Assembly (NCBI GenBank): GCA_040219575.1
Contig: JAVJSD010000014.1
Location: forward strand, 66,120 to 130,119
Direction: 5' to 3'
Origin: Pirellulaceae bacterium
GTDB lineage: Bacteria; Planctomycetota; Planctomycetia; Pirellulales; Pirellulaceae
Length of the DNA: 64,000 nt
Shown here piece after piece: positions 36,317 through 61,535 of this stretch (within the stretch, counting starts at the first letter, position 1; each line of letters begins with the position of its first letter). The notes below the pieces were generated by a model. The model saw only the letters and a program-made list of their open reading frames with translations, did not search any database and was not told the DNA's origin. Made by a program: the position numbers and the translations under genes.

Positions 36317-36553
36317 ATTTGTCCAGACAGCGGCAGCCTGTGCGTGCGTTTGAAAGTAGTCTCGATCCTCCACAGAGATCGCGACATTATTGCCAGCAAG
36401 ATTTCGCAGGTAAGCCTTCACTCCACCCAATCCACCACTCCCGCCAGATGCTGCCATTTGGACGTTCAGATTGTGGTATTGGATAACGAGATTATCTAAC
36501 ACCCGATTATCAAGGCTGTTGTTGTTTCCTTCACAGACGAGATAGACGGACAT
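36275..36553 (-). CDS. mini-Toprim protein (DUF4435/OLD-like core; possibly C-terminally truncated by the IS)
   Basis: Toprim Glu in VYLVCEGNN and DxD in SVEDRDY. The last ~13 codons lie inside the candidate IS1380 right end. It overlaps the stop of the upstream ATPase. Confidence 0.45.
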   Translation of the reverse strand: MSVYLVCEGNNNSLDNRVLDNLVIQYHNLNVQMAASGGSGGLGGVKAYLRNLAGNNVAISVEDRDYFQTHAQAAAVWTNLGLNQVKPPTLFR

Positions 36554-37659
36554 TACTGTGGTCCCTCGGAACTCAGGTCATCCAAGCTTCCGAGGTCGAC
36601 GACAGAATCCGGGCGAACTGCATCACGCAGATATGGCGAATGGGTCGTGGCGATTATCTGATTGCCGTCACCCATTTGTGGAACAAGATGTAAGAGCTTT
36701 CGTTGCCATATGGGATGTTGATTGAGTTCTATTTCGTCGATCAGCACAATTGACTGGTGCATATGCTCAGCGACAAATCGAATCAGCAACAACAGCACCA
36801 TCTGTTCTCCGCTACTTAATCCGCTGTATGAGTATTCGTCACACCCATTACTAAAGAGGATGTCCAGCCCACCTCGATCGTCATCGCGGATTGGACCGAC
36901 GATTTCGTGCGGAGCGCAGACTCGTGAGTATCGTTGCTTGATTCGGTCAAAATCACTCACTTGCTGATCGCGATACGGCGGCACCAAAGATCGGACTGCC
37001 AGATCAAGGAGAATGGTTTTGGGATCACTCGTTCTTCGATCCTTCGTTCCCGTAGGCATCGTCCCGTGAATGATGTTCCAGACCCTTCGGGATACTGTCT
37101 TGGCGAATGCCGTACGCTGCTGATCGAAGGTGAAGACGCCTCCCACTTTCTCAAACCAATCCCAACCGACCCGTCGCGTCGAAAGCAAACGGGCGATCCG
37201 ATACCGCCCCTTTAGCAGGGTCCAGCCGAGGCCAGGTTCGCACGTGCTGTAGCCATGCTCCGAACGCCCCTCGGGATCCGGGTACTCCCAGGTCAGTGCA
37301 ACTTCCTGAGCGTTAGGCACTTCGTGCGGCAACTCGGCCAAATCAAATACGTGACGGACTGCTTCAATCTCGTCCGTCGTGAATCGAAGCCAACACGTAA
37401 CCTTGGCGTGCAAAGCCCCTCGACGCACCACTGCCCAAGGAGCCCGCACAAAGTGCCGTCGCAGCGTTGGCATTTGCAGGGTGGGGCCAATTGCGGCAGC
37501 AATTGCGTCGAGGATAGTCGTCTTCCCGCAGGTGTTGGGGCCGACCAAAAGAGAGAATTCGCGCACCCTACCCATGGCGTCGGTGAAATCCAACACGAGC
37601 GGTTGGCCCTCTCCTCCGAGATGACGAAAATTCTCAATTTGCACTCTTGCAAGCTTCAT
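36553..37659 (-). CDS. compact ABC-type ATPase (AAA_15/AAA_21-like, RecF/SMC-head-like)
   Basis: Walker A (GPNTCGKTT), ABC signature (SSGEQ), Walker B/D-loop (IVLIDEIELNQHP) and H-loop (IATTHSP). GC content is visibly lower than the backbone. Confidence 0.75.
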   Translation of the reverse strand: MKLARVQIENFRHLGGEGQPLVLDFTDAMGRVREFSLLVGPNTCGKTTILDAIAAAIGPTLQMPTLRRHFVRAPWAVVRRGALHAKVTCWLRFTTDEIEAVRHVFDLAELPHEVPNAQEVALTWEYPDPEGRSEHGYSTCEPGLGWTLLKGRYRIARLLSTRRVGWDWFEKVGGVFTFDQQRTAFAKTVSRRVWNIIHGTMPTGTKDRRTSDPKTILLDLAVRSLVPPYRDQQVSDFDRIKQRYSRVCAPHEIVGPIRDDDRGGLDILFSNGCDEYSYSGLSSGEQMVLLLLIRFVAEHMHQSIVLIDEIELNQHPIWQRKLLHLVPQMGDGNQIIATTHSPYLRDAVRPDSVVDLGSLDDLSSEGPQ

Positions 37660-38060
37660 GTTCCGCTCTCGGTTCCATGAAAAACATTCCATCCGAACAG
37701 TGTTTCCGACCATTCAGATTATCGACGTGGTACACCGGCACTGCAAGTTCGGTTTTGGAATCGCCGGCACGCTCAGGGCACATAGGCACGGCTCGGAAAG
37801 TCAACCGAGCGCCGACGTTACGAGCCTGCTGCCAATTCGGAGCATTGCCTTTTTCGGCAGTCCGACTAGCTAGTTCCAGTCTTACTCAGACAGCCATGCC
37901 ACGGCCGACGTTCACTCGGCACGAATGCTTGTCGGTTTGGTTAGCTGTCGGATGGGCAAATCGGCGGGTGTGAACCAGCCGGTCGAAACTATGCCGACTT
38001 TGAGCGGCGAAGAACGCCGGATTACTTGCTTCTGGCCCCCAGGATGGGTAGATTCGGCGG

Positions 38061-39390: not shown

Positions 39391-40755
39391 TCACAGATAG
39401 CGACCAGTCAAGTAGTCGATGTATGCCTCGTGTCCGTCACGATGCTTCGAGAAACATTCTATAACGTCCTGGAAGGTCAGTGCGCGAAACGCGAGTCCGT
39501 CCCGACTGACAATCTCGCGAAATCTGTCGACTTCTTCACCGTGTCGCTTTGCCGCCGCACTGCCTGGAACATCATACCAGAGGTAAACGAGGACAAATCT
39601 GCCCAGACTGTTTCGGTGTTTCAGTCCCAGTGTGTGCTTTAGTAGTTGGGCAGCATGCAGGTGGACGAATACGTCATCACGCGGGCAAATCCGTTGGCCT
39701 AGCTCACGACAATTCGGAAGCTCTATCCAGAGATGTTCTTCCCGGAGGTAAGCAGGAGCCAACCCTTTCTCGCTTGGCTCGCTGGTACGGTACACCTCCG
39801 TGAACTTACACTCGAATGCTAAATCGGGCAGTTCATTTGAATCGGCGAATGCGATCGTGACGTCCAAGTTCGGATCCCTGGGGAAATGCTCGCGGTTTGG
39901 AGAGTCCATGATCGGACGCTTTGCCTCAAACTCGATCGACTTGACTGAACCCTCCGACAAACCGAACGCCTGTAGAAGTGGATCGCAGTCCTCTTGGCCG
40001 CGCCAGTAGTCGAAGAGGTTGACGGTTAAGGCGGAAGACGAATGTACTGCTTGCATTTTTGCTGGTCCGTCTTCCGTCGTGAGTTCATCGCCATCACCCT
40101 CCTCGAACTCTTGCCGAGTTTCAAGTGACATTGGCTGGAACAGGTTATCCTCGATAGTAGGGGTGTATGCAGGATCGCCTCGGCCACCTTTGCTGCCGAT
40201 CAACTTTAGCCCATATTTCCCGGCCCATTTCTTTTGGCGTTCCTTGCAATTGTGGAAGGCTTGATCGCTTTCTGTGCGACGCGCAAAAGCTTCATCTAAG
40301 TTAGGAATATCATCATCACACACTCCTGCTGCCTTCCAAATGATGCCGAAGAATCCTTCAAAGCTTACAAACGTGGGGCGATTTTGCATAAACAGCGTTC
40401 CCGTCAATCCCTCATGTCGTCCGGCCGCCAGCTCCCTATTCATCCTGACCACACGTTGGGAGCATTCCGTAAATGACCGCTTGGCGACACCGTCGAGTTC
40501 CTCCAGCCAACGCGCCAACGGAACCTCTCCATCGAATAGCACAATCTGACGTACGTTTCTGTTCGTACGAATCAGGTCTCGTATAGGGTCGGTGATGTGA
40601 CGCATCACCTCCGTCTGTTCATCCAGTAGGAATTTCCGTTTCGCCTGCATCGAGCAATAACGAGAAACCGCTCGATTAAGGTCTGTTCCATACCGCTCCA
40701 CCTCGTAGACGCTGTCAGGCGCACAAATGTGATAATAGGCGCTGGAAAAAATCAT
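39391..40755 (-). CDS. hypothetical protein with C-terminal PD-(D/E)xK-like nuclease motif
   Basis: C-terminal DVTIAFADSNELPDLAFECKFTE (D ... E-x-K). N-terminal ~250 aa unrecognised. Low GC. The start is taken at the internal ATG at 40755. Confidence 0.4.
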   Translation of the reverse strand: MIFSSAYYHICAPDSVYEVERYGTDLNRAVSRYCSMQAKRKFLLDEQTEVMRHITDPIRDLIRTNRNVRQIVLFDGEVPLARWLEELDGVAKRSFTECSQRVVRMNRELAAGRHEGLTGTLFMQNRPTFVSFEGFFGIIWKAAGVCDDDIPNLDEAFARRTESDQAFHNCKERQKKWAGKYGLKLIGSKGGRGDPAYTPTIEDNLFQPMSLETRQEFEEGDGDELTTEDGPAKMQAVHSSSALTVNLFDYWRGQEDCDPLLQAFGLSEGSVKSIEFEAKRPIMDSPNREHFPRDPNLDVTIAFADSNELPDLAFECKFTEVYRTSEPSEKGLAPAYLREEHLWIELPNCRELGQRICPRDDVFVHLHAAQLLKHTLGLKHRNSLGRFVLVYLWYDVPGSAAAKRHGEEVDRFREIVSRDGLAFRALTFQDVIECFSKHRDGHEAYIDYLTGRYL

Positions 40756-40922
40756 CGTCTGCCTTCCTCGTGCTTGAGTAAATGTTCGACGATCTTCGAC
40801 AATGAAAGTGGATAAGAATACCCGTCGAGCTGCGAGATATGGTAGTGCGGCGGTTGCACATGGCCCTGAATCGTAATTGTAGCCAGTCACCGAATGAATC
40901 GTGAACGACAGGAACATGCGGA

Positions 40923-41666
40923 TCACCGAGGCTTCTTCGACCGAAGACCTCCAGTCTCCGGTGATCCCGCTTTCGCCGGCGGCGGCGGGTAGCATATCGG
41001 CCCCCAATCTTCGTCTGAACCGTGGTCGATCCACACCAGCAGGAACGCCGGCAACAAACGCTGCATCATCGTCACGCAGCGCCGGAGCGAAGTACGGTTC
41101 AGCTTGCCGCCGTACGTCGCCGCCCCGTGAACGAGCTGGCAGCGCATTAGATAGATGCGGTCCAGCACGTGGTCCAGGATCATGGTCCAGCGATGTTCGG
41201 TGTACCAGTTGCCGGCTTTGTACTTGCTTCTCCGCGACTGGCCGGCCCACTCTGCCGACGGCTCCTGCCAGAAGAACTTGCTGAGGTGTTTGTCCTCCAG
41301 CAGCGTCATCACGAGCCGCTTGTGATCGGTGAGCGCCCCCGACACGTACTCCGACCGATCGAGTCGGAGGATCGCATCGACGAATGCCCGCCAGGTCTCT
41401 CGGTCCGGCTTCGGTTCCTGCCGCTGTTCATCCCATTGACCGTACAATGAATTGAACGCGATCCAGAGACTGATCAGGTCGAGGTCGAGGTCGTGGTCTT
41501 CGGCGCCGGCACCATCCTCGGTGCGGGCGAGCCAGCTGCATGCCCGATGAAAGCGGATACAAGTTGTCTGCTCGCCGCCTTTTGCCAGCAGACGCTCCTT
41601 GTGCGGCTTCCACCGGCGCCGGAGCAGGTGGACCGTCCATTCGCCCGTCGCAGAGGTCTCTTGCAT
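40923..41666 (-). CDS. hypothetical protein with HEPN-like R-x4-6-H motif
   Basis: RCQLVHG near the C-terminus, predicted alpha-helical. Directly upstream of and co-directional with the PD-(D/E)xK-like gene. Confidence 0.35.
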   Translation of the reverse strand: MQETSATGEWTVHLLRRRWKPHKERLLAKGGEQTTCIRFHRACSWLARTEDGAGAEDHDLDLDLISLWIAFNSLYGQWDEQRQEPKPDRETWRAFVDAILRLDRSEYVSGALTDHKRLVMTLLEDKHLSKFFWQEPSAEWAGQSRRSKYKAGNWYTEHRWTMILDHVLDRIYLMRCQLVHGAATYGGKLNRTSLRRCVTMMQRLLPAFLLVWIDHGSDEDWGPICYPPPPAKAGSPETGGLRSKKPR

Positions 41667-42439: not shown

Positions 42440-43360
42440 ATGACAACTCGTGATCCGACCGTTGCCATCATCGGCGCAGGTATTGGCGGCCTCAGTTGCG
42501 CTCGGCAACTTCACGCCTCCGGCTTTCGCGTCCGCGTTTTCGACAAGGGACGTGGCGTTGGAGGGCGGGTTTCAGTCCGACGCTCTGAGCGGGGCGCCGT
42601 GTTCGATCACGGTGCGCAATACTTCACCGTCAAGGATGTGGCGATGGTCGAGCAGGTTGAGCACTGGAAGGCCGCCGGAGTCGTCGCTCCGTGGGAAGGT
42701 CGGATTGGCTCGCTTAGTGAACGCCAATGGACGCCGACAATCTCTGAGACCACACGCTACGTGGGTGTACCCGGCATGTCCGCGATCGCCAAGCATCTGG
42801 CCGCCGATCTGGATGTCGTCCTCCAATGTCTGGTGACGGACGTTGCCCGCGACGGCCAGGGTTGGCGACTCACCGGCGAGGATCAAAGAGACTTGGGGGC
42901 ATTTGGCATTCTGATTCTCAACGCCCCAGCTCCCCAGTCGGCGACGCTTGTCCCGGAGTTTACGGGGTTTACAGACAGGATTCGCTCCGCCGAGATCGCA
43001 CCCTGCTGGGCCGTCATGTTGGCTTTCAATGAACGGTTGGACGTGCCGTGGGACGCCGCGTTCGTTGACGATTCGCCGCTCTCCTGGATTGCTCGCAACA
43101 GCAGCAAGCCTGGGCGGGCGACTGAGCCGGACTGCTGGGTGCTGCACGCCAGTCCCGAATGGTCGGCGCAGCATCTAGAGGATTCGCACGAATCGGTGAC
43201 GGCGAAATTACTCGCCAGTTTCTGGGATGCCCTCGGCGCGTCACCCCAGCCGCATGCACTTACGGCAGCGCACCGCTGGCGGTTCGCCCTACCCACCGAC
43301 CCCTTGGAACAACGCTGCCTGTTCGACTCAGAATTACGGTTGGGCACATGCGGTGATTGA
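42440..43360 (+). CDS. FAD/NAD(P)-binding oxidoreductase (renalase / amine-oxidase-like)
   Basis: N-terminal dinucleotide-binding GxGxxG (VAIIGAGIGGLSCA). Confidence 0.75.
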   Translation: MTTRDPTVAIIGAGIGGLSCARQLHASGFRVRVFDKGRGVGGRVSVRRSERGAVFDHGAQYFTVKDVAMVEQVEHWKAAGVVAPWEGRIGSLSERQWTPTISETTRYVGVPGMSAIAKHLAADLDVVLQCLVTDVARDGQGWRLTGEDQRDLGAFGILILNAPAPQSATLVPEFTGFTDRIRSAEIAPCWAVMLAFNERLDVPWDAAFVDDSPLSWIARNSSKPGRATEPDCWVLHASPEWSAQHLEDSHESVTAKLLASFWDALGASPQPHALTAAHRWRFALPTDPLEQRCLFDSELRLGTCGD

Positions 43361-43511
43361 TGCGGCGGCCCGCGCGTCGAGGGTGCCTATCTCAGTGGGC
43401 GCGCGTTGGCCGAAGCGGTCTGTAATTTGGCCTGATTTACAGAATGAGACGCAAAAACTGGCCCGATCCGGCGACTTCGCTCGCCCGACATCTGGCCTAC
43501 AAAAAAGTGCC

Positions 43512-43943
43512 GTGAATCGCATCCTGATCGACACAAACGCATTTGTCGCCGCGGCTTACAACCCTGAGTCGGCAAGCCGGAAGATCGTGCGGGCTGTAGA
43601 GCGCGGCGAACTCAAGTTGATCGTCAGCCCGGAAATCGTCCGGGAGTACAAGGCGATCCTGCCCAAGGCCGTTCGTTCCGGCGAAGCGCGGGACTGGCTT
43701 TGGCAGGTCATCGAGATGGCGGAGCGTGTCACGCTGGCGGAGAATCCGCCCGTGACCGAGGATCGCGCCGACGACAAGTTCCTGGCTGCGGCGGTGGCCG
43801 GCGTAGCCGATGCAATTGTCAGCAGCGACCAGCACCTGCTGGACGTTCATCCCTACGCGGGAATTGACATCCTGCGCCCGACGGAGTTCTGGGACCGGTT
43901 CTCCACCGACAGTGATGAATCAGGACCGTCCGGCCCGGTGTGA
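43512..43943 (+). CDS. PIN-domain protein (VapC-like), no obvious cognate antitoxin
   Basis: ILIDTNAF N-terminal PIN motif and later acidic residues. GTG start. Confidence 0.6.
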   Translation: MNRILIDTNAFVAAAYNPESASRKIVRAVERGELKLIVSPEIVREYKAILPKAVRSGEARDWLWQVIEMAERVTLAENPPVTEDRADDKFLAAAVAGVADAIVSSDQHLLDVHPYAGIDILRPTEFWDRFSTDSDESGPSGPV

Positions 43944-44534: not shown

Positions 44535-47500
44535 TTATTGGGAGAGTTGCTTCGTCAAGGACCACACGTTGCCAACTCGATGTTCTAGCAAAGCGTCCCA
44601 GGCGTCGAGACAACGTCGCCGGACATGCAATCGTTCTGAGCCTTCCGCTTGTTCGTAAAGTCGAAGAAGAAGTGGACTGATTTCTTCGCCTGCATAGGAC
44701 ATAGGACGAGTGCCTTTGACTTCGAGGGAATCTAGCTCGCCACATAGGTTTTTGCATGCGTCAAAAATCACGTCAGAAAAAGGGACTAACGATTCTGGAT
44801 GTTGTTCCAGTGCGCGCAAGAGCTGCTCCGGTCTATCGCGGAAAGCCGACGAAATGGCGAGTTTATGTAAGAAAGGAGCGGTCTCGGGAAACCGGAGAAG
44901 CTGATCGACTCGAAACATGGCCTGTCGGCGAACTTGCTCTTCTGAGTCATCAAAATAGCGAGCTAACAGCGTGCGGCACGGTTCCGAGTAATCGAGCGTC
45001 GTGACAAGCTGTGCCGCTGCTTTGGCAACGCCCTTGCGTTGAGGTACAGAGCCTCCACAGCATCTTTTCACTTCCTCGTCAAATAGCCCAAAGAACACCC
45101 ATCGGGCTGCCATTTCGGCCGCGGCTACCTCGGCTACGTCCTCATGTGGCGAGGCGGCCATGCGGCGTATTAACGGACAGAGCACGTGGGCATACGCAGG
45201 AAAGGCAAAATTGAATACTCGACACGCATCACGACAGGCGCCTACTCGATCCTCACTCGCGGCTCGCACCAGCCAATGTACGGCAGAATCACGCTCCAGA
45301 TTCCAGACGGGCAAACAAATCCCAACGGCCGCGAGGCGGACAACTGGATGTGGATCCTCAAGGAGTCGTTCGATTTCCGGACGAAACCGGTCTAACAAAT
45401 CTGGCCTTCGGAAGAGAATCGCTGCGATCGCATGTGCAGCAAGTCCTCTGACGCAATTGATCGCGTTGTGCTCCAGCACTTGAACGCTGCATTGCGATGC
45501 CCGCTGGTTGCAGTGAACATGTAGCGTGTCGCCATCTGGATCACAGTGATCGACAAGGTCGGCTAAGCGATGAACTATTTTCTCCGACACTTCGATGTCG
45601 TCTCGATGCACAATAATAGTGCAGAAGGCGCAGCATAGTTCAGCCTCGGCACTCCTCGGTATATGCTCCAAGACTGCCTGTACACTCGTCGCCGAGGCCG
45701 GTGACCAATCTGCTCGGCGATCATCACGGACCTCGGATGGCGGCGATTGCACATGCAAGCTTTGCATTATTGCGGCAAGGTAATCAGGCGGCACGGCATC
45801 AGGTAGCCTTAGAGCTAGTCGGGAAAACCGCTCCGGCTCGCGAAGCGCGGCCGTACGAAGGTCGCGCGCGAACATCTCAACCGAAGTCTCAATGACTGTA
45901 CCTTGTCTGTAGGAGTGGCCCCACCTCGCAGCGCCACGACGGGGAATGTCGCCGTTGGTGATAAGCGATAGCCAAGCGGTGTCGCTCAAATGGTCAACCA
46001 TTCGCAGGTCGATCGGAGAGCGGACTCCGCCACCTTGTGGCTTCGGACGGCAGAAGAACTCTTCACTTTCGTGGGAAAATTTTTCAGCCAGCACTCCGAT
46101 TCGACCGACAGTCTCCGTCGATCGCCGCGTCGCATCGAGAGCAGGCAACAAGAAATACTGGGCAGCTCCAAACTTATTACGGAAGTCGCCGTCGCGTGTT
46201 TCCTCCAACCACCACCGCGCAAGTCGCTTTTCCTCTGGATCACGGAACGCATGAACCGCTGTTTCCAGTTCCGCGAATACTTCATCGGAGCAGTGTGGAG
46301 ACTGTTTAGCGATGAGGCACGTTGCTGGATTCCATTTCGGATGCCGAACTCCAGCGCCACACTGAAATCGCCTTTTGTCGTCAAGTAACCACCGAACCGC
46401 GATGTCGGCGAAAGCCGGCGGAAGCGCAGCATGGCATGATACGAGTACCTCTTGAATTATGCGAGAGCGTCTTCCATCTAGTTCATCGGCGACGCGAAGG
46501 AAGGTTTCAGGCGCTCGACGAGCGATTTCGCGTCCGGCTGCGCGCAGGGCGGAAATCAAGAGACGCGGAATGTGAATTCGATCCTCCCACGGTTTAAACT
46601 CGCGGCGTTTCCGCTCATTGGCGCGCTGCCTACGACGCTCGATGAGAAGTCGTATCAATTCCGCACTCAGTAGTCGCCACGTCAATCTTGGAACTCGGCG
46701 CGCTGCACGGCCAACAGCACGCCAATCAGGCGAGCCTACGGTCCCAAGAGGCAATGAGCTGGAGAACATGCGAGACTTCACGTCCGGCACTTTTGACAAG
46801 CAAGTGGCAAACATCCGAATTGCACGTGCAGGATTGTTCTCAGCGATCTTGCTCCACGGAAAGTGGTCCGGAAGGGCTCCTTGTCGCGCACAATCCAGTC
46901 GCAATCTAAACATCACGTCTGGTTCGCCGTGTGGCTCAGATCTGACAAGCGTCCGTTCGATCTGGCGCGCCCACTCTTCGCCTCTTCTCAAGAGTGGTCG
47001 GCAGATGCTGGCCACTAATTCTGGGCACCGGTCGGCTACCGAGCGGACAAGCATCAGGGCGTCGTTCTCCTGCTCCGCATTTCCCGAGTCCAACCAGTCA
47101 TGGAGGAGCCCAGTCTTACCGAAAGCAGTGACGTATCGTGACTCACCGCGGACAACGAGCGATAGAATAAGGTCCCGCCATACGCAGTCGCGCACCAGAG
47201 CGAGGACCAGCGCTTCCGTGGTGTCCGTCGGAGATACTTGGCTTAGTGCTTCAAGAGCTAACTGCTTGATATGAAATCGGACTTCGCTATCGGACAATAG
47301 TTCGTTTATCCCACTCACAAATCGTGCGGGGTCTTCGTCGGCAATTAAGAACAACAGCTGTCGGAGTTGTTCGCGTCGAAAGAGCGATTGTCGATCCCGC
47401 TCGCCGAGCCACTCAAGAACCGAGCATCCACCAATCAAGACGGTGCCGGCAGCACGGTCGGCAATTAGGAAATCCAGATAGCACTGATGGCAAAAAGTCA

Positions 47501-49172
47501 CCTTCCGACGACTTACTTGAATAACACCAAGAGTTTGCAGTTCTGTTGTGGCTTTCTCCTGTCGCTCGATAAGTTGCGCTGGCGCGGTCAGTTCAGCATG
47601 CTCTTCCATGTAGCGGACAAGCGTGTCGAGTAGCGCGTCCCGTTCCGTGGCAGTGATCCCCGCTTTTTCAACTTCGATACGGCGATTACGCCAAAACTCG
47701 CGCATCAGCCCTGTGGCTGAATCGAAATCCGGCGAAGGCTCTCCAGCTAGGACGATTTCTGACCACATGGCAAGGTTTTGCACTGTGCGCAACAGTGAAC
47801 GCCGCGTTGGCGTCAATCGGCCCGGATCAAGCCCGCAGAGTTCGACAGTTTCCTTTACTGCGAGGTCTGGCAATTCTTGAACCTCGACTTCCTGAACCTG
47901 GTCCGCCTTCCTACCACGAAGCCACTGGCGGATTTGCGGATCGTTGTTGAGATCGAATGTTCGGCAGGAAATGAGTACACTGAGTTTACAACCAAGCTGT
48001 CGCAAACTTTTGACCTCCCGGAGGAGCGATTTGCAGACGCCAAGTCCTTCCGCAGAATGTGCACCGGTCCAGCGAAGCGCATCGAGTTGATCAAGGATCA
48101 ACACTCCACGACCGCTCGCCGCAAGCTGTTGCAGACATACTACCGGGGAATCGGGCAGCCCTAAGTCGATGCCGAACTGGCGAGCGTGGCCACGCGCCGA
48201 TTTTCGATCCAGTCGAATTGGGATAAAGGGAGTTCCCATCTCGGTCAAGCGTTCAGCAACTGCGTAGAGAACACCGCTTTTCCCACGGCCTGCCGCCCCA
48301 TGCAGAATGACGATCTCCGGCGCATCGTCAGCATTCAACTCGTCAATAATCGCTTCTGTTTCCGACCTGGGAATAAGCCGACCCGCTGCCAGTTTCGGTC
48401 GAATCGAATCAAGGAAGTCTTGGCAGAGTTCGTTGACTTGGAGATAGATGCGATTGTCGGCGGTTAGCCGTCGTACCTGCATTTCTTTACTTTGGACGTG
48501 CTGGAACACTTCCAAGGCGGTGAGGGTCTTACGAAGGTTGTTTTCGGCGAAGTCCGCGAGGACTGCAATTACAACGTCGGGATTTGCGGCAACTGATGTT
48601 TCGGCCATGAAGCGTAGGTCGTCATTAGCGTGCCGGTCGTCGCAGGCAAGATGCACATGGGTGCGACGAAGGAAGTCAAAGGCTTCCGCACGGCCATCGG
48701 ACGTGTGCGCATCAAGCATCAGACTGCGACACAGGTCCTGGAATGCGTCACGCCGCTTCTTCCCCAAAGCGTTGATTTGATGCTGTACAAAGCTCTCCGC
48801 ATCACCAGAAGAGTCGCGGGCACTCTGGGAAATATCGCGAAGTTCGCTTGCGGGAACTGCCGAGACTAAAGCGAAATCGTGGTTAGAGCTACGGTTAAGA
48901 TGGGCCTTCGCAGATCCAAGGACTCCTCGCTGGTCAAGGTCGGCAAGTGACCAGTTGCTCTTGCTGCGGTTGCGTGCCTTGCACTGCTGGGCTTCGCGAC
49001 GCCCATCATTCCTTTCAACCCAGAGATCAACTCCGGCTTCATCGTCTCCAATTGCTTCAATAGTTATGGACCGAAGCCGTTCGTGCAGCAACAGCAGAAG
49101 CTGTCGCACTACCCAACGTCCCTCGTATCGGTTTCCCAACTTGTCAGCATAACCGCCGGGCTCAAAGGCCAT
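44535..49172 (-). CDS. Avs-like antiviral STAND NTPase with N-terminal Mrr-like PD-(D/E)xK nuclease domain
   Basis: N-terminal Mrr_cat-like pattern (YEGRWVVRQLLLL ... IGDDEAGVDLWVE ... EAQQCK). Walker A (HGAAGRGKSG) about 290 aa in, and Walker B (VLILDQLDAL). About 1000 aa of helical-repeat sensor-like C-terminus. AGGGGA Shine-Dalgarno site upstream. Lower GC. Confidence 0.7.
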   Translation of the reverse strand: MAFEPGGYADKLGNRYEGRWVVRQLLLLLHERLRSITIEAIGDDEAGVDLWVERNDGRREAQQCKARNRSKSNWSLADLDQRGVLGSAKAHLNRSSNHDFALVSAVPASELRDISQSARDSSGDAESFVQHQINALGKKRRDAFQDLCRSLMLDAHTSDGRAEAFDFLRRTHVHLACDDRHANDDLRFMAETSVAANPDVVIAVLADFAENNLRKTLTALEVFQHVQSKEMQVRRLTADNRIYLQVNELCQDFLDSIRPKLAAGRLIPRSETEAIIDELNADDAPEIVILHGAAGRGKSGVLYAVAERLTEMGTPFIPIRLDRKSARGHARQFGIDLGLPDSPVVCLQQLAASGRGVLILDQLDALRWTGAHSAEGLGVCKSLLREVKSLRQLGCKLSVLISCRTFDLNNDPQIRQWLRGRKADQVQEVEVQELPDLAVKETVELCGLDPGRLTPTRRSLLRTVQNLAMWSEIVLAGEPSPDFDSATGLMREFWRNRRIEVEKAGITATERDALLDTLVRYMEEHAELTAPAQLIERQEKATTELQTLGVIQVSRRKVTFCHQCYLDFLIADRAAGTVLIGGCSVLEWLGERDRQSLFRREQLRQLLFLIADEDPARFVSGINELLSDSEVRFHIKQLALEALSQVSPTDTTEALVLALVRDCVWRDLILSLVVRGESRYVTAFGKTGLLHDWLDSGNAEQENDALMLVRSVADRCPELVASICRPLLRRGEEWARQIERTLVRSEPHGEPDVMFRLRLDCARQGALPDHFPWSKIAENNPARAIRMFATCLSKVPDVKSRMFSSSLPLGTVGSPDWRAVGRAARRVPRLTWRLLSAELIRLLIERRRQRANERKRREFKPWEDRIHIPRLLISALRAAGREIARRAPETFLRVADELDGRRSRIIQEVLVSCHAALPPAFADIAVRWLLDDKRRFQCGAGVRHPKWNPATCLIAKQSPHCSDEVFAELETAVHAFRDPEEKRLARWWLEETRDGDFRNKFGAAQYFLLPALDATRRSTETVGRIGVLAEKFSHESEEFFCRPKPQGGGVRSPIDLRMVDHLSDTAWLSLITNGDIPRRGAARWGHSYRQGTVIETSVEMFARDLRTAALREPERFSRLALRLPDAVPPDYLAAIMQSLHVQSPPSEVRDDRRADWSPASATSVQAVLEHIPRSAEAELCCAFCTIIVHRDDIEVSEKIVHRLADLVDHCDPDGDTLHVHCNQRASQCSVQVLEHNAINCVRGLAAHAIAAILFRRPDLLDRFRPEIERLLEDPHPVVRLAAVGICLPVWNLERDSAVHWLVRAASEDRVGACRDACRVFNFAFPAYAHVLCPLIRRMAASPHEDVAEVAAAEMAARWVFFGLFDEEVKRCCGGSVPQRKGVAKAAAQLVTTLDYSEPCRTLLARYFDDSEEQVRRQAMFRVDQLLRFPETAPFLHKLAISSAFRDRPEQLLRALEQHPESLVPFSDVIFDACKNLCGELDSLEVKGTRPMSYAGEEISPLLLRLYEQAEGSERLHVRRRCLDAWDALLEHRVGNVWSLTKQLSQ

Positions 49173-49385
49173 GGTTCCCCTGCTTCCGTGACACAGTAGA
49201 TATGCTTCGACACTCCCTCAGCCACCGGCACCCGGTTCGCCCCCATCTGCGTACGTTGATTGTGCTGGTCATACCGCTTTGCTGCAAGAATTCGTCCGGC
49301 TCAGTCTAGTCCCAGGGTGTCCCCATTGACAACGCCCGCGGTCCGATTATGCGACCCGGGGGCGTCGAACTTTCGCTGTTGCCGA

Positions 49386-50423
49386 TCAAATCGCAAACGG
49401 CTTGGCCGTCTGCCACTTGTTGTCGGCGAGCCACTTCTTCGTGGCCGGCAGCGAGGCGTACACGATCCGCTCGCCGTCGCGAATCACCTGGCCGGTGAAC
49501 CGACCGGGCTGGACCGTCTCGATCGACAAGCCGGCGGTGGACTCGTCACAGGTGAGCATCAACTGCTCGTCAAGCAGGTCGCGCACCGTCGCCCTGGCTC
49601 GCTCGTCTTCCTGGCGGGCGATCTCGGCGATCACCGATTCCAGTTCGTCGAGCGAACCGATGTCGTCCGGCAGCGGCGTACGCGATGCCGGCACTGCGGC
49701 GCGCTCGCCCTTGAGTTGCGCGACGCGAATCGCCAGCGACCCGTAGCACTCACGGATCAAGCACGGCCACACGCTCCGCCAGTAGGCATGGGACGGAGCA
49801 CGCTCGACACCGACTACCTGGTCGTCGACCAGGATGATCGCGCCGATCTGTCGCGGCACGCACTCGAATTCGGCGACGAACTCGTCCAGCTCCTTCTGGA
49901 AGTGCTTGAGGAAGAACTCCAAGTGGCCAGCGGCCTGGAGTCCCATCTCCCGGTTGAACAGCGAAATGGCTTCCCACAGCTTGTTGAAGCTCGTCTCCTG
50001 CCGGACCTCCAGCGCTCGCTCCCGCAGCGCGTACGGGAGAATCAGCATCCGGTACGATCCGCGCTGGATGAAGCCGCCCTGCGACTGCTGGATGCACATC
50101 GCCGTGTCGAACGACCGCTGGCCGGCCGATCGAACCACGCCGGCATGCGCCATGGCGTGGTCCTGAGCGGCCTGCTTGACGACGTAGCCGGCGTGGCACG
50201 GGACGATCAGCACACAGTCACCCGGGTTGCGGAATCCAAGCGTTCCGTAGCTCGTCGTGAACACCTCGGCCTCGCCCTCGACGGGCGAGACGAAGCGATC
50301 GTCGGAAAGCTCACTCACCAGCGGAATGACCTGCATGTAGCCGACGCTCTGGATGCGGCCCGGCGTGCAGCCGTGCAGCACGTCAGCCACGCGGATCGTC
50401 TTCTGTCGGTTACGAAACACCAT
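49386..50423 (-). CDS. hypothetical protein, upstream partner of a vWA gene (14-bp overlap)
   Basis: 345 aa. No family recognised by eye. Translationally coupled to the vWA gene. Confidence 0.5.
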   Translation of the reverse strand: MVFRNRQKTIRVADVLHGCTPGRIQSVGYMQVIPLVSELSDDRFVSPVEGEAEVFTTSYGTLGFRNPGDCVLIVPCHAGYVVKQAAQDHAMAHAGVVRSAGQRSFDTAMCIQQSQGGFIQRGSYRMLILPYALRERALEVRQETSFNKLWEAISLFNREMGLQAAGHLEFFLKHFQKELDEFVAEFECVPRQIGAIILVDDQVVGVERAPSHAYWRSVWPCLIRECYGSLAIRVAQLKGERAAVPASRTPLPDDIGSLDELESVIAEIARQEDERARATVRDLLDEQLMLTCDESTAGLSIETVQPGRFTGQVIRDGERIVYASLPATKKWLADNKWQTAKPFAI

Positions 50424-51147
50424 GCTTCACCTCCTCGATGCGTCGCACATCCCGCTTACCTTCCATCGCCGGACGAACCATGCCCAACAACGCCGCTGCG
50501 CCACGGTCTACATCGGCCTCGAACAGCACCTTCAGCAGGCCCAGTCCGATCGCTTCCGGCTTGTTCACCGGCAGGCCCGCCACACTCTCGCTGAGCACGC
50601 GGATACCTCGGGCCTCTGCCGCAAACACGGGCGAGAACTGGTGGAACGGCGTCTCGACGCCCATCCGCCGCACCGCCCGCACCACTTCGGCAAAGCGCCC
50701 GGCCGGCGCGTTCTCGTAGCCGTCTGTAAGCACGAACACCACGTCGGGCTCGCGCTTCAGCAGCGCCACGAGACCGGCAGCCAGCGACGTGTCGCCGGCC
50801 GGCTCGATCAACTCGGCCGCCGGAGCCGCACGTCCGTCGTTCGTCACGATCGTCACCCGCTCGGCCGTCTCGGCCAGCAGGTCACGCAAGGCCAGAGCGA
50901 CCGAGATCGGTCGCCGCGCCTGCGTTTCGTGCCCGAACATCGACGCCGAAACGTCCAGCAGGATGCCGGCGTGCTCGAAACGCACCAGCAGCCTCTGAGC
51001 CGTCGCCTGCGCCTTGCGCAGCAGCTCGTGGATCTGGTCGCGATTCCTTGACGCGCTGGTGAACGGCAAGTTTCGGACCTGCCTCGATGATTGCAGGAAA
51101 CGAGCCGGCGTCCGGCCGGTCATAGCGGTCTTGATTGGGCCGTGCAC
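50410..51147 (-). CDS. von Willebrand factor type A (vWA) domain protein
   Basis: MIDAS D-x-S-x-S (LLDVSASMFG), followed by Thr and Asp-Gly blocks (VFVLTDGYEN). Confidence 0.65.
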   Translation of the reverse strand: MHGPIKTAMTGRTPARFLQSSRQVRNLPFTSASRNRDQIHELLRKAQATAQRLLVRFEHAGILLDVSASMFGHETQARRPISVALALRDLLAETAERVTIVTNDGRAAPAAELIEPAGDTSLAAGLVALLKREPDVVFVLTDGYENAPAGRFAEVVRAVRRMGVETPFHQFSPVFAAEARGIRVLSESVAGLPVNKPEAIGLGLLKVLFEADVDRGAAALLGMVRPAMEGKRDVRRIEEVKHGVS

Positions 51148-52142: not shown

Positions 52143-52346
52143 TATCTCGCAGCAGCAAGACACCGACCGGTTTCCGCTCGGTGTCCTTTTCTATCCGAAG
52201 CCATGCGAGGCGACGCGTCGTTCAAATATCTAGTGAACGGGTGTCACCGTGGACAGCATCTGTCCAACCAACACCTTATCATTGGGCATTGCTTTCGTTT
52301 CACCTGTGTTTGTGAACACTCATCCATTCATCCTCTCCGGCGACCG

Positions 52347-53396
52347 ATGGAACCTAGCTCTCCGCTCCTCCGCCAATGGATGCTGCTCAAGCTACTCGCG
52401 GCGACGACGCAGGGACGCGCCGTCCGGGAGCTGGCTGACGAAATGAGTGTCAGCGAGAAAACCATCCGCCGCGATCTCGCCGTGCTGACCGACGCCGGGT
52501 TCCCCATCGAAGACAAAACCGGCGAGTTCGGCCGCAAGGCCTGGCGTATCGCCCCATCGTGGAGTCCGTCCCAGATGGCATTCACCTTTGACGAAGCTCT
52601 CGCGCTCTACCTCGGCCGCCAGTTTCTCGAACCGCTCGCCGGCACGTTGTTCTGGCAGTCCGCCCAGCGGGCGATGAACAAAATCCGTGCCACGCTGACG
52701 CCCTCCGCCCTCCGCTATGTTGATCGGGCCGCCGAGGTCCTCTACCACACGGCCTTCGGCGCCAGCGATTACTCCCGCAAGGCCGATTTGATCGACGCAC
52801 TAATGGTCGCCATCGAAGACCGCCATGCTGTGTTCCTGACCTACCGCTCGCAACGCGCCACGGAACCCGTCACCTACGACGCTTACCCCTACGGGCTCAC
52901 CTACCATCGAGGTTCCCTGTATCTGGTAGGCCGGGCGCCGCAACACGACGAAATCCGACACTGGAAGGTCGATCGCATCGAAGTGGTCGAGCCGGCCGAA
53001 CTGCAATTCTCTCGGCCGTCTGGTTTTAATCTCCGCCGCCATTTCGCCGACTCGTTCGGCATTTGGGACGGCCGCGGTCGCATCGCCGTCAGAATCCGCT
53101 TCTCGGCAGACGTTGCCCGCTACGTCGAGGAATCCACCTGGCACGCGAGCCAAAAGCTGCAACGTCAACACGACGGCACGCTGATCGCCACCTTTCGGCT
53201 CTCCGCCATCGAAGAGATCAAGTCCTGGATCCTCAGCTTCGGACGCCACGCCGACGTGCTTGGGCCGCCAGAGCTGCGTGAGGAGATTGCGACGGAATTG
53301 CAGACGCTACTGATGAGATACACCTCGACACTGGAACCGCAACTCGACGAACCAACCGACCATATAAGTCGAAGGCACCGGCCATCGAAACGCTGA
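52347..53396 (+). CDS. HTH + WYL-domain transcriptional regulator
   Basis: N-terminal HTH (LRQWMLLKLLAATTQGRAVRELADEMSVSEKTIRRDLAVL) and a WYL-like core (VTYDAYPYGLTYHRGSLYLVGRAPQHDEIRHWKVDRI). It lies immediately upstream of cas6. Confidence 0.75.
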   Translation: MEPSSPLLRQWMLLKLLAATTQGRAVRELADEMSVSEKTIRRDLAVLTDAGFPIEDKTGEFGRKAWRIAPSWSPSQMAFTFDEALALYLGRQFLEPLAGTLFWQSAQRAMNKIRATLTPSALRYVDRAAEVLYHTAFGASDYSRKADLIDALMVAIEDRHAVFLTYRSQRATEPVTYDAYPYGLTYHRGSLYLVGRAPQHDEIRHWKVDRIEVVEPAELQFSRPSGFNLRRHFADSFGIWDGRGRIAVRIRFSADVARYVEESTWHASQKLQRQHDGTLIATFRLSAIEEIKSWILSFGRHADVLGPPELREEIATELQTLLMRYTSTLEPQLDEPTDHISRRHRPSKR

Positions 53397-53529
53397 TCCG
53401 ATTTTCCGAAAAACTGTTGGACAACCGCACACATGCACTTCAGAATCAAGCGTCCGATCTTTCGCCACATCGCGGCAAGAGTCGCTCGTCCCGACAGGCT
53501 TCGTGGGCAGTTCTGAACGAGGGTAGGTC

Positions 53530-54156
53530 ATGCACATCGATCTTTCGTTTCGTCTCATTGGTCAGAGTACGATTCCCTCCGATCACGGCTACCACCTCTA
53601 CGCCGCGGTCTCTCGGGTTTCGTCGCAGGCGCACGAGCCGAACGGTATCGGCGTCCATCCGATACGCGGTCGACAAATCGGCGATCGGCAGATCCAGCTC
53701 ACCGATTTCAGCCGCCTGACCATCCGCACCGAAGCCGACCACATTTCTCGCTGGCTTCCGCTTGCCGGCAAGCAACTGAACGTCGGCGGCCGCCCAATTC
53801 GCGTGGGTGTACCGGAAGTCCGCAGTCTCACGCCAACCGTCGCGCTCCGCAGCCGGCTCGTCACTATCAAGGTCTCTTCTGTCCGTGGCGAGTCACCTGC
53901 CCCACCCGACGCAGAGAGTTTCCGCGCTGCCGCTCTCCGTCAACTCGCCTCGCTTGGTATTTCCGACGCGGCCTCGCTTACGCTTGGCAAGCGCCGCACG
54001 CTGCGCATCAAGGACAAAGAAGTAGTCGGATACGAAGTACTCGTCTCCGAACTCACCGTCGAAGATTCGCTGGTCCTTCAAGAGCGCGGCCTCGGCGGTC
54101 GCCGCCATATGGGCTGCGGGATCTTTGTACCGGTCAACAAGCGAGAGGAGGCGTGA
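53530..54156 (+). CDS. cas6: CRISPR endoribonuclease Cas6
   Basis: Glycine-rich C-terminal loop GLGGRRHMGCGIF and Cas6-like size. First gene of the cas operon. Confidence 0.8.
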   Translation: MHIDLSFRLIGQSTIPSDHGYHLYAAVSRVSSQAHEPNGIGVHPIRGRQIGDRQIQLTDFSRLTIRTEADHISRWLPLAGKQLNVGGRPIRVGVPEVRSLTPTVALRSRLVTIKVSSVRGESPAPPDAESFRAAALRQLASLGISDAASLTLGKRRTLRIKDKEVVGYEVLVSELTVEDSLVLQERGLGGRRHMGCGIFVPVNKREEA

Positions 54157-56489
54157 TGGACGTCAATCGATTGTGGGCGAAGAGCAAGCCGTACGGATGG
54201 GACGACGACGACCCACGAGTCGAGTCGCTCTACCTTCCGCAGCATCTACGCGACGTTCACGACGCCGCCAGCCAAATCCTCGAAACGACGGGAGATTCAC
54301 AGCTTCAATCGCTCGGCCTGGCCCCGAGACTTTGGCGAGACCGATTCCGACGCGTATTGCTTCTCGCCGCGGCCGTTCACGATCTCGGCAAATGTGGAAG
54401 TCACTTTCAACTTATGCTGAAGGGTCAAGGGCGCCAAGCATTGCGGCACGAGTGGGTCAGTTTATTGATTCTGGACACTCCAGGTTGGACGAGTTGGCTC
54501 GTCTCCGCCGTGGATGGTGAAGCGATCGACTTAGAGATTGTCCGTTGGGCCGTAGCGGGCCATCATCCCAGATACGATCGAACAGCCCCGCCGACATCAA
54601 ACGACGGGCCTGCCACGCTTCATCTACCACTGGATCACCAAGATATCTCCGAAACGCTCAAATGGCTGGGTAGTACGTTCTCCCTTCACGGGACGCCTTC
54701 GCAGGAACCACGCACCGTTTCCCTGACGTTTGATCCCGGCAACGCCATCGATGCGCTCGCTGATCGACACTACGCTGCTGAAGACTTGTTTGACGACTTT
54801 TCGTCCGAAATGCGTCGATTTGTCGCTGCCGTCAAGAATAGCCTTGTCTCCGCCGACATCGCGGGCTCAGCGTTGCCGCGGCTAGCGGATGCTCAAGCGA
54901 AGCGGCACTGGCTCCGTGACGTACTCAACCAGGAAGGTCTGCCGACGTCCAACGACTACCGACGAATTACGGCCATGCGACTCGGCCGCTGCGAGCCAGC
55001 GGCAGTCGAAGGGAAACTCCGTCGATTTCAGAAAGAAGTAGGCGCGTCGCCGGCCCGAGTGACCTTCGTTCGGGCTGGTTGCGGAACCGGAAAGACTATC
55101 GCTGCGTATTGGTGGGCAGCCAACGTCTGCGCTGGCCGGCGATTGTTCGTCTGCTATCCGACCACAGGCACGGCGACCGCCGGCTTCGCCGACTATCTGA
55201 TGGATCCGGAACTTTCCCAAGCGGTGAAGACCGACCTGATTCACGGTCGCCGTATAGTTGACTTTCGCATGCTGCAGGCAGACGAGGATCGCAATGAGTC
55301 TGTGTCGCGCATCGCATCACTCGACATGTGGCGGACGCCGGTCGTCTCCAGCACCGTCGATACGGTGCTCGGTCTCATCCAAAATAACCGTCGCGGCCTG
55401 TGCAATTGGCCCGCCATCGCACAAGCAGGATTCGTCTTTGACGAAATCCACAGCTACGACGACAAGCTGTTCGACGCCCTGCTTCACTTTCTCGCGACCA
55501 TTCGTGGTGCGCCGATCTTGCTGATGACCGCCAGCCTACAGGTTCGTCGACTGGAGGCGATTCGATCGGTGCTTGCGGCGGCCGACGACCCACTTGCCGA
55601 GATTCCCGGGCCAGAGACGCTGGAAAGAGTTCCGCGGTATCAGCAGCGCCGCGACGTCAAAGCCAAGGACACGAAGCAAATCGACGCGATGATCCATGAG
55701 GAGGTCTCGCAGGGTGGAAAAGCTTTGTACGTTTGCAACACGGTGACCGATGCATTGCGAACAGCAGATCGGCTTGCGAAGTTGAAGCCCTTTGTCTACC
55801 ACAGTCGCTTTCGCTATCGCGATCGCGTTGAACGACACAAGAGCGTTGTCGAGGCGTTTCGACGCAAAAGCAAGTCTTCCGCCTTGGCGATTTGCACCCA
55901 AGTAGCGGAGATGTCCCTTGACCTCTCCGCGACACTCCTCGTGACCGCATTGGCGCCTGTGCCGTCGTTGATTCAGCGGCTTGGGCGCTTGAATCGTATC
56001 GAAAGGCCGGTGGAGCCACGACCATTCGTCATCGTCGAACCCCTCGGCGCCGATGGCAAGTACTCTCCACTTCCATACGAAGAAGGCGACTTGAAATCGA
56101 GCAAGAGTTGGCTTGAGGCAATCGGTGATGAACCTTGTTCTCAGCGCGACTTGGCCGACGCATGGGAGCGCCTCGCGGAAGGCGATTCGCCGTGTGCTCC
56201 GCCGCGTTGGCAGAGCGCATGGCTAGACTATGGGCCAGCTACTCCCGTCCTCGAACTTCGTGACGGATCACCCACACTTACGGTCATTCTCGAGGAAGAC
56301 TGGCCCCGGCTCTGCTCCCCCGACAATGCGACCGCATTGGCCGAGGTCGCCCTGCCCATGCCCATCCGCCCCGGCGACGACTGGCAGCTAAGAGATCGTG
56401 AAGACCGGCCACTGGAGTTCGCCGGAGTACCGGTCGCCAAGGCGGACAAGATCGACTATGACCCTCAACGAGGTGCGCAATGGCTGTAG
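54153..56489 (+). CDS. cas3: Cas3 (HD nuclease fused to DExH helicase)
   Basis: N-terminal HD motif (AAAVHDLGK), Walker A (GCGTGKT), DEIH box (FVFDEIH), and a helicase C-terminal domain. Confidence 0.9.
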   Translation: MMDVNRLWAKSKPYGWDDDDPRVESLYLPQHLRDVHDAASQILETTGDSQLQSLGLAPRLWRDRFRRVLLLAAAVHDLGKCGSHFQLMLKGQGRQALRHEWVSLLILDTPGWTSWLVSAVDGEAIDLEIVRWAVAGHHPRYDRTAPPTSNDGPATLHLPLDHQDISETLKWLGSTFSLHGTPSQEPRTVSLTFDPGNAIDALADRHYAAEDLFDDFSSEMRRFVAAVKNSLVSADIAGSALPRLADAQAKRHWLRDVLNQEGLPTSNDYRRITAMRLGRCEPAAVEGKLRRFQKEVGASPARVTFVRAGCGTGKTIAAYWWAANVCAGRRLFVCYPTTGTATAGFADYLMDPELSQAVKTDLIHGRRIVDFRMLQADEDRNESVSRIASLDMWRTPVVSSTVDTVLGLIQNNRRGLCNWPAIAQAGFVFDEIHSYDDKLFDALLHFLATIRGAPILLMTASLQVRRLEAIRSVLAAADDPLAEIPGPETLERVPRYQQRRDVKAKDTKQIDAMIHEEVSQGGKALYVCNTVTDALRTADRLAKLKPFVYHSRFRYRDRVERHKSVVEAFRRKSKSSALAICTQVAEMSLDLSATLLVTALAPVPSLIQRLGRLNRIERPVEPRPFVIVEPLGADGKYSPLPYEEGDLKSSKSWLEAIGDEPCSQRDLADAWERLAEGDSPCAPPRWQSAWLDYGPATPVLELRDGSPTLTVILEEDWPRLCSPDNATALAEVALPMPIRPGDDWQLRDREDRPLEFAGVPVAKADKIDYDPQRGAQWL

Positions 56490-58177: not shown

Positions 58178-58210
58178 ACATACCTTAACATACAGCAAGA
58201 GATCGATACC

Positions 58211-59131
58211 ATGACTCTACATGTCTTTGCGAGTATCGCGACAGGCTACGGAACGGCGGGCAACAATCGCGGCGAAACCGAGGGCAATACAACGACGCTG
58301 CAAAAGTTGATCTGGCATGGTCAGCCGCATACGACCGTTAGCGCCGAGGCGATCCGCTTCGCATTGCGGCGGCTTCTAACATGCAAAGAACAAGCTGGCA
58401 CGAATCGAACCTGGAACGAAGCGACTCGCAGGAACGACTGGCAGGACGCCGAATTCAAAAAGTGGCGCAAAGAGGAAGCCGGCTTCATCGACGACGATCT
58501 ACTTGGATTCATGTCCGCCGAAGCCGCGAAAGACGAAAACACAAAGGGATCCGCCAACGTACGGCGTGCCGTGCTGGAAATGACGCGCGCCGTCTCTCTT
58601 ACACCTTGGCCGGGCGACGTTGTCTTCAACGCTGCCTCGCCGCGCGCAACCGCCTCTGCCGCGAAAGGCGAGGGCGACAATCCTGTGCCTTATATGGCCG
58701 AGGTCCACGCCACTCGCTACCAGTATGGACTTGCGATGACACCGACTGCACTTCGCGACCGCTCTCGGGCAGCGAAGGGACTTGAGGCAGTTGCTTCATT
58801 GGGGACTGTCGCGGGCAATCACGCCAGATTCCTGTTCGACTTCGCGCCTGAAGCCATCGTCATTCGATTAACGGAGGATCCCGCTCCTCGCTTACTTTAT
58901 TGCTTCGATACGGCGGATGGCGGAAAGACCATCGGGGCAGAGACGCTTGTCAAGAGAATTCAGTCTGAGGACATCAATCCAGACGAACTGATTCTTGGCG
59001 TGGTCGACCTCGACGCCTCTCTCGCGGATCAGCTCAAGACGGCGGGCGTGAACCAGATCCACGGCGTTCGACGCGCAGTAGAACTGGCATGCAAGCGAAT
59101 CAACGAGCACTCAGACGTGAAAGGCGGCTGA
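58211..59131 (+). CDS. cas7: Cas7 backbone subunit
   Basis: Cas7-type N-terminus (GYGTAGNNRGE...), AIRFALRR block, 306 aa. Confidence 0.8.
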   Translation: MTLHVFASIATGYGTAGNNRGETEGNTTTLQKLIWHGQPHTTVSAEAIRFALRRLLTCKEQAGTNRTWNEATRRNDWQDAEFKKWRKEEAGFIDDDLLGFMSAEAAKDENTKGSANVRRAVLEMTRAVSLTPWPGDVVFNAASPRATASAAKGEGDNPVPYMAEVHATRYQYGLAMTPTALRDRSRAAKGLEAVASLGTVAGNHARFLFDFAPEAIVIRLTEDPAPRLLYCFDTADGGKTIGAETLVKRIQSEDINPDELILGVVDLDASLADQLKTAGVNQIHGVRRAVELACKRINEHSDVKGG

Positions 59132-59132
59132 T

Positions 59133-59798: not shown

Positions 59799-59813
59799 CG
59801 CAAGGAATGGAAA

Positions 59814-61532: not shown

Positions 61533-61535
61533 ACG

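Follow-up and report, generated by a model that had tools for sequence, protein, structure and literature searches.

What kind of protein is encoded by a long, unannotated gene beside a CRISPR-Cas locus in a planctomycete genome, and what would set it off? We analyzed a 64,000-nt stretch of DNA (the window; contig JAVJSD010000014.1, positions 66,120 to 130,119 of the forward strand, assembly GCA_040219575.1) from a Pirellulaceae bacterium (Planctomycetota), in which a single uninterrupted open reading frame (ORF) runs on the minus strand from an ATG at 49172 to 44535 and encodes 1545 amino acids (aa) plus a stop codon. The product is identical to MEQ8785532.1, an entry titled 'MAG: hypothetical protein RIC55_04505 [Pirellulaceae bacterium]' (MAG, metagenome-assembled genome). 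A first-pass annotation had read it as an antiviral STAND (Avs; STAND, signal transduction ATPases having numerous domains) protein of the Avs1-4 type, with an Mrr-type nuclease and a sensor for phage terminase or portal. Our results point elsewhere within this group: the gene product is probably an Avs7-type antiviral STAND receptor acting as a single protein, which would sense the phage capsid and degrade double-stranded DNA (dsDNA). As shown by alignment and structural modeling, its predicted architecture consists of a Cap4 nuclease (aa 1-255), a STAND NTPase (aa 262-645) and a ~900-aa Avs7-type sensor. Homology to Avs7 points to the phage major capsid protein, and not to the terminase or portal, as the likely trigger.

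Relationship to SeAvs7 and conservation of the catalytic motifs

Homologs of the 1545-aa protein form a family of strikingly constant length (~1540-1560 aa) with 38-51% identity, all of them unannotated, from Planctomycetota, Syntrophaceae ('Deltaproteobacteria' in the source names) and Pseudomonadota MAGs; alignments of 24 and of 70 members were used. When the family profile was compared with all PDB sequences, one significant relative was obtained, 9n00_A (also 9n01 and 9yix), with an E-value of 1.1e-21. This 1523-aa entry, titled 'AAA family ATPase', aligned collinearly with our protein across nuclease and NTPase, its aa 46-619 pairing with our aa 49-638. The structures 9N00, 9N01 and 9YIX represent SeAvs7 of Salmonella enterica in the apo and capsid-bound states (Lee et al., Nature 2026, PMC13581612; bioRxiv 10.64898/2026.01.04.697583). 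By BLAST, the 1545-aa protein shares 24% identity with SeAvs7 over 318 aa (E = 3e-9), and family members share 22-25% identity with SeAvs7 residues 46-619, with E-values down to 6e-23. The proposed membership in the antiviral STAND group was thus borne out, with SeAvs7 as the sole significant solved relative.

In SeAvs7 a Cap4 nuclease and a STAND NTPase are joined to a bilobed, sharply bent sensor resembling tetratricopeptide repeats (TPR-like), which wraps around the HK97-fold major capsid protein; on binding, the ADP-bound auto-inhibited state is lifted, and the activated, ATP-bound protein assembles as an asymmetric tetramer in which the Cap4 domains break down dsDNA (PMC13581612). The same three-part order was recovered here, as the first-pass annotation had described it: a PD-(D/E)xK nuclease, then a P-loop NTPase of STAND/NACHT-like type, then a long helical sensor. 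The ORF and all the motifs quoted in that annotation were likewise present, namely YEGRW (aa 16-20), GDDEAGVDLWVE (aa 42-53) and QQCK (aa 62-65) in the N-terminal part, and Walker A GAAGRGKSG (aa 292-300) and Walker B LILDQLD (aa 358-364) in the center. Across the 70-sequence alignment E17, D49, Q63, C64, K65, G292, G295, G297, K298, D361, Q362, D364 and H562 are invariant and S299 is at least 90% conserved; R404, which does not vary in the 24-sequence alignment, likewise reaches at least 90% in that of 70. As the motif pattern is invariant in the family alignments, we consider it real and under selection.

In SeAvs7 the nucleotide is contacted by the Walker A Lys/Thr, D358, R395 and H545 (PMC13581612). 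These residues align to K298/S299, D361, R404 (in 'CRTFD') and H562 (in 'FCHQ') of the 1545-aa protein, in which Walker A extends over G292-S299 and Walker B comprises D361 and D364 (LDQLD). All the elements of the Avs7 STAND NTPase, i.e., Walker A, Walker B, the gamma-phosphate arginine and the winged-helix histidine, were therefore found. General-purpose models were far less sensitive: the NCBIfam scan of the protein gave no match and the Pfam scan gave sub-threshold matches only (nSTAND_NTPase5, NACHT, AAA_22 and a few HEAT repeats), nSTAND5 (PF25199) scoring 26.9 bits, below its gathering cut-off of 34, and covering just aa 262-310. The best fold matches were the NACHT of NLRP3/NOD2, Avs4, Avs3 and Cap4. 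Both features on which the first-pass annotation had staked its reading, an NTPase-domain match and catalytic D/E/K residues conserved on alignment, were found.

Many STAND clades are not defensive (PMC13581612), and several loci of our homologs lie amid housekeeping genes, as would befit a transcriptional or signaling regulator whose nuclease-like domain is inactive. The catalytic E/D/QxK and the NTPase motifs are nevertheless invariant across the family, the protein is homologous to SeAvs7, an experimentally proven defense protein, and the gene is scattered sporadically over unrelated lineages, in variable contexts and with atypical GC content. A non-defense role of this kind is the least probable of all the explanations considered.

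A Cap4-type rather than Mrr-type nuclease

In the predicted model, residues 1 to ~250 adopt the canonical PD-(D/E)xK topology, with the predicted catalytic residues E17 on helix alpha1, D49 at the start of or before strand beta2, and Q63-x-K65 on strand beta3. A PD-(D/E)xK nuclease had been recognized correctly at first pass, but its assignment to the Mrr type did not hold: no Mrr-type structure occurred among the top 60 fold matches of the N-terminal region, and Pfam Mrr_cat (PF04471) matched none of the family members scanned. Comparison of hidden Markov models (HMM-HMM) with the N-terminal domain of SeAvs7-like sequences gave instead a probability of 96.1% (E = 3e-9), and the motifs of our family (GG...LGNRYE ... 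EAIG ... GVDLWV ... QQCKARN) correspond to the Avs7 set (G..S.RGDxYQ ... EID ... VDDVV ... CQCKKNQ). From these four results we conclude that the nuclease is of the Cap4 type and not of the Mrr type; the Cap4 nuclease fold (PF14130/DUF4297), with its catalytic D and (E/Q)xK, was found. A profile of the N-terminal domain only also had SeAvs7 as its top match in the PDB, yet with an E-value of 0.18, which is not significant alone.

The sensor domain

The sensor was modeled with AlphaFold2 (AF2) as a confident all-alpha solenoid (pLDDT 89.9, pTM 0.67) with a small beta insert at ~aa 1049-1097 and a terminal helix at aa 1536-1544; it carries HEAT-like repeats at ~aa 1240-1310. The C-terminal helical repeats noted at first pass are in agreement with this structure prediction, while their length was overestimated (~900 aa, residues 646-1545, instead of ~1000 aa). 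For comparison with Avs7, SeAvs7 residues 46-619 were rebuilt from the printed alignment and used as search seed, and an Avs7 alignment of 51 sequences covering the whole sensor was built from SeAvs7-like fragments (40-82% identity) and then from C-lobe fragments. The query consisted of aa 650-1545 of the 70-sequence family, so that the NTPase was excluded.

In this sensor-only comparison, hhalign returned a probability of 97.9% and an E-value of 6.1e-13 over 797 columns, at 4% identities. The alignment was collinear end to end, from 8 to 896 of the query and from 25 to 876 of the 877 template positions, and the reversed-sequence control gave an E-value of 0.41. The N-lobe tested on its own gave 2.8e-6. 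Several motifs are common to both sensors: GG.V.SP...ISD..WL, P-E-R-F, NxINCVRG (N.IN..RG), DPHPAVR (D..HPAVR), LLRLYEQA and the C-terminal helix. In Avs7 this helix has a conserved length and clashes with the nucleotide-binding domain (NBD) on activation (PMC13581612), and the alignment reaches the last residues of both families (896 vs. 876 of 877). The Avs7-type sensor is the feature by which the authors define the family (PMC13581612), and hhalign found it in our protein, against an Avs7 alignment assembled from fragments. From the end-to-end alignment, the reversed control and the coinciding motifs we infer that the domain is a very divergent Avs7-type sensor. Judged on its NTPase, sensor, C-terminal helix and Cap4 effector, the protein can be counted among the Avs7 family, in a distant subfamily.

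Several points weigh against this assignment. Foldseek of the sensor against a PDB fold library without 9N00 gave generic HEAT solenoids alone (CAND1, karyopherins), with template modeling scores (TM) of at most 0.26. The Avs7 sensor alignment was pieced together from database entries that are fragments of less than 1000 aa. HMM-HMM scores can be inflated by helical repeats, although the end-to-end collinearity and the reversed control argue against such inflation in our alignments. The nearest PADLOC model is PDC-M54A, a multi-gene candidate by name, and the match is only partial (E = 1.4e-28, aa 288-570 of the protein, with a second model over the HEAT region). Finally, because identity to SeAvs7 is low in all the comparisons above (24% over 318 aa, 22-25% for the family, 4% in the sensor), the trigger specificity could differ.

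Candidate trigger and proposed mode of action

The view that the protein is Avs1-4-like and senses terminase or portal is consistent with its N-terminal half, for which the top Foldseek match was portal-bound Avs4 (8dgf, E = 4e-11), in which a STAND NTPase likewise comes after a PD-(D/E)xK nuclease. None of the PADLOC models for Avs1-5 matched the 1545-aa protein, however, and a PADLOC scan at E-values up to 1 gave no Avs model, just PDC-M54A. The Avs3 and Avs4 sensors were not retrieved by the Foldseek search with our sensor, which is homologous end to end with that of Avs7, a binder of the major capsid protein (PMC13581612). Neither the Avs1-4 assignment nor terminase/portal sensing was upheld, and we regard this view as very unlikely.

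The divergence of the sensor raises a second question, whether the same chassis (a Cap4 nuclease with an Avs7-clade NTPase) forms a sister Avs family in which the sensor has diverged toward another phage protein or a non-capsid cue. Sensor identity to Avs7 amounts to a few percent and a profile-to-sequence search scarcely detects the SeAvs7 sensor (domain E-value 26); TPR-like sensors of Avs families recognize 14 different phage proteins (PMC13581612), and PDC-M54A is an uncharacterized candidate and no known Avs. The sensor alignment is, on the other hand, collinear over all ~880 positions with several motifs in common, and Avs7-type sensors retain capsid recognition even on unrelated effectors, e.g., Dsr1 (PMC13581612). 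Because the sensor is so divergent, we grant a different trigger a small but appreciable chance.

In one Avs7 clade EF-Tu serves as a structural cofactor (PMC13581612). The subfamily described here, found mainly in Planctomycetota, Syntrophaceae and other environmental lineages, might be a sister family of Avs7 with a retuned sensor, directed at a different conserved phage protein or at environmental-phage capsid folds without EF-Tu; we hold this to be unlikely. If true, the repertoire of bacterial pattern-recognition receptors would extend past the enterobacterial examples tested.

By homology to SeAvs7, the Pirellulaceae receptor would work as follows. In the uninfected cell the protein would be an auto-inhibited, ADP-bound monomer, its nuclease docked on the NTPase and on the sensor's C-lobe. 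On infection the sensor would clamp a freshly synthesized phage protein, in all likelihood the monomeric HK97-fold major capsid protein. This contact would release the NTPase, with exchange of ADP for ATP and oligomerization (a tetramer in SeAvs7), and the assembled Cap4 domains would then degrade dsDNA indiscriminately, so that the infection is aborted.

Size, spread and variants of the family

An exhaustive phmmer search of 1.84 billion representatives, with the sensor as query, returned 1,368 clusters (50% identity) at E <=1e-3 and 339 at E <=1e-30, nearly all of them ~1530-1560 aa long with the sensor beginning near residue 650. Shorter relatives (~1000-1290 aa) were considered as other architectures and rejected, as they share the architecture of the longer ones, being fragments truncated at the N-terminus, without SIR2 or another domain. 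One 1454-aa homolog (P0341) keeps the NTPase and sensor and has a ~140-aa N-terminal region in place of the ~252-aa Cap4 domain; these first ~140 residues fall outside the alignment to the 1545-aa protein and gave no Pfam match, which suggests effector swapping within the subfamily. Searches seeded with SeAvs7 yielded fragments shorter than 1000 aa only and no full-length (~1523 aa) proteins, for a family said to number more than 3,000; the authors' own Avs7 list holds 3,272 sequences, and their tree (NTPase plus sensor) 1,757 representatives (PMC13581612). It seems that the searched collection lacks, or hides, the full-length Avs7 proteins.

The spread of the family indicates that the Avs7 design reaches far past Enterobacteria, into Planctomycetota and other environmental phyla. 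A large family of ~1550-aa 'hypothetical proteins' would thereby receive a testable function, that of capsid-sensing, DNA-degrading abortive-infection receptors. Since the Pfam, NCBIfam and PADLOC Avs models all miss this family, a profile made from the subfamily is needed to detect it.

Gene composition and genomic context

The ATG start is supported by the N-termini, which are collinear (MAFEPGGYADKLGNRYEG) across all homologs aligned. The gene has a GC content of 55.4% in a window of 61.7%, in line with the low GC remarked on at first pass, and its GC at third codon positions (GC3) is 54%, compared with 81-86% for native-looking neighbors. The Shine-Dalgarno site, called strong in the same annotation, was borne out only in part: it is an AGGGG, a plausible yet imperfect match. 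Promoter-like matches around the gene were no more frequent than in shuffled sequence. The gene lies in a defense-rich stretch beside a type I CRISPR-Cas locus (Table 1) and was probably acquired by horizontal transfer into a defense island. No tRNA gene was found as an integration-site marker in the window.

Six other homolog loci on long contigs were compared. They contain XRE-type regulators, an M78 peptidase or plain housekeeping surroundings, others being mobile or defense-related; in one, the homolog sits in an island with AAA_15/DUF3696, a reverse transcriptase and Fic. No partner gene is shared among the six, and because none is conserved the gene is predicted to be a single-gene system. 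In another of the six (locus L001; Anatilimnocola aggregata CP036274.1, 4644423-4665039), the homolog P0038 lies inside an apparent integrative or prophage-like element with genes for a GpA-type large terminase, a ParB-N6 methyltransferase, a Prim-Pol, an HTH_17 excisionase-like protein and a tyrosine integrase. If an Avs that senses capsids is borne on a mobile element, this would exemplify inter-element competition.

The close spacing of the same-strand ARPP-1 gene upstream, and the name PDC-M54A, which implies a multi-gene candidate, raise the possibility that the gene works with the ARPP-1 and VWA-like genes or with a 'PDC-M54B' partner. Neither ARPP-1 nor VWA, nor any other common neighbor, was found in any of the six homolog loci (0/6). 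The ARPP-1 gene has, moreover, a native-like GC3 of 86% vs. 54% for the Avs7-like gene and was therefore not acquired together with it. No PDC-M54 match occurred among the window neighbors, and PDC-M54 had no mention in the literature searched. We rejected an operon with ARPP-1/VWA on its lack of conservation and native GC3, and consider a multi-gene system highly improbable.

The other neighbors of the gene are of mixed character. The ARPP-1 and REase-ARP families are both named for 'ARP' conflict systems; in the window unrelated genes lie between them and their GC3 differs (86% vs. 54%), and a literature search on the two gave nothing useful. The AAA_15/AAA_21 ATPase is possibly another defense gene. 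The listed PIN_3 ORF overlaps the preceding amine-oxidase ORF (42440-43360), and because of this overlap its true start is probably further downstream; it may encode a toxin-antitoxin-type PIN nuclease. The CRISPR-Cas locus (52203-63941) is a complete type I locus, I-B/MYXAN-like by its Cas8a1/Csx13 and Cas6 models, and no Cas2 was identified in it.

Table 1. Positions of the Avs7-like gene, its predicted domains and neighboring features in the window
Feature	Coordinates	Strand	Remarks
Complete Avs7-like gene	44535..49172	-	1545 aa; stop codon 44535-44537
Predicted Cap4-type PD-(D/E)xK endonuclease effector domain	48408..49172	-	aa 1 to ~255; predicted catalytic E17, D49, Q63-x-K65
Predicted STAND (NACHT-like) NTPase module	47238..48389	-	aa ~262-645; NBD, helical domain, winged helix
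Predicted Avs7-type alpha-solenoid sensor	44538..47237	-	aa ~646-1545, C-terminal
Shine-Dalgarno-like AGGGG	49177..49181	-	5-9 nt upstream of ATG; read off the sequence; imperfect match
ARPP-1 domain protein (PF20208, E 9e-30) and overlapping weak VWA_CoxE-like ORF	49386-51147	-	directly upstream; 214 bp from the gene
619-aa protein, C-terminal REase-ARP / PDDEXK_13 nuclease	39391-41250	-	3 kb downstream of the Avs7-like gene
386-aa AAA_15/AAA_21 (OLD/AbiEii-like) ATPase	36553-37713	-	low-GC island edge (53% GC in 36001-37000)
PIN_3 domain ORF (E 6e-20)	43227-43943	+	domain from ~residue 98; weak PADLOC PDC-M11A match
HTH-WYL-WCX regulator	52203-53396		
Cas6	53530-54156		
Cas3 HD-helicase	54153-56489		
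Cas8	56480-58177		
Cas7	58211-59131		
Probable Cas5 (candidate)	59133-59798		
Cas4-Cas1 fusion	59814-61532		
CRISPR array	62188-63941		at least 25 copies of 36-nt repeat GTGTCCGCTTCGTTGATGCCGAAAGGCGTTGAGCAC (24 identical, 1 with one mismatch); reaches the window end

Comparison with known systems

Other systems were compared with the 1545-aa protein. Cap4 of the cyclic oligonucleotide-based antiphage signaling system (CBASS) and LmuA of Lamassu are nucleases placed under a SAVED domain binding cyclic oligonucleotides and under an SMC-like complex, respectively, and not under a STAND NTPase with a sensor. SeAvs3 (8DGC) and EcAvs4 (8DGF) have terminase- or portal-binding sensors dissimilar to the Pirellulaceae sensor. 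The match to the PDC-M54A model, an uncharacterized candidate of 1621 positions, is limited to aa 288-570, and an Avs7-related fragment (P0222) likewise matches this model. Defense-associated sirtuin 1 (Dsr1) is reported to have the same Avs7-type capsid-binding sensor (PMC13581612), with a SIR2 effector and without the STAND NTPase; the 150 best sensor relatives include no Dsr1-like architecture, and the Dsr1 models of PADLOC gave no match.

SeAvs7 is the closest counterpart. Both proteins have the same three-part order and near-equal length (1523 vs. 1545 aa), a Cap4-type nuclease with D...QxK, a single-gene organization and horizontal mobility. They differ in identity (~23% in the N-terminal half, a few percent in the sensor), in the motif of the first 47 residues (GNRYE here vs. 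GDxYQ in Avs7), and in their hosts, which here are Planctomycetota, Syntrophaceae and Pseudomonadota MAGs and not Enterobacteria. Use of EF-Tu is restricted to a single Avs7 clade of 192 members and should not be presumed for the Pirellulaceae protein. We conclude that this protein is a new, divergent relative of the recently solved Avs7 and represents no new system or mechanism.

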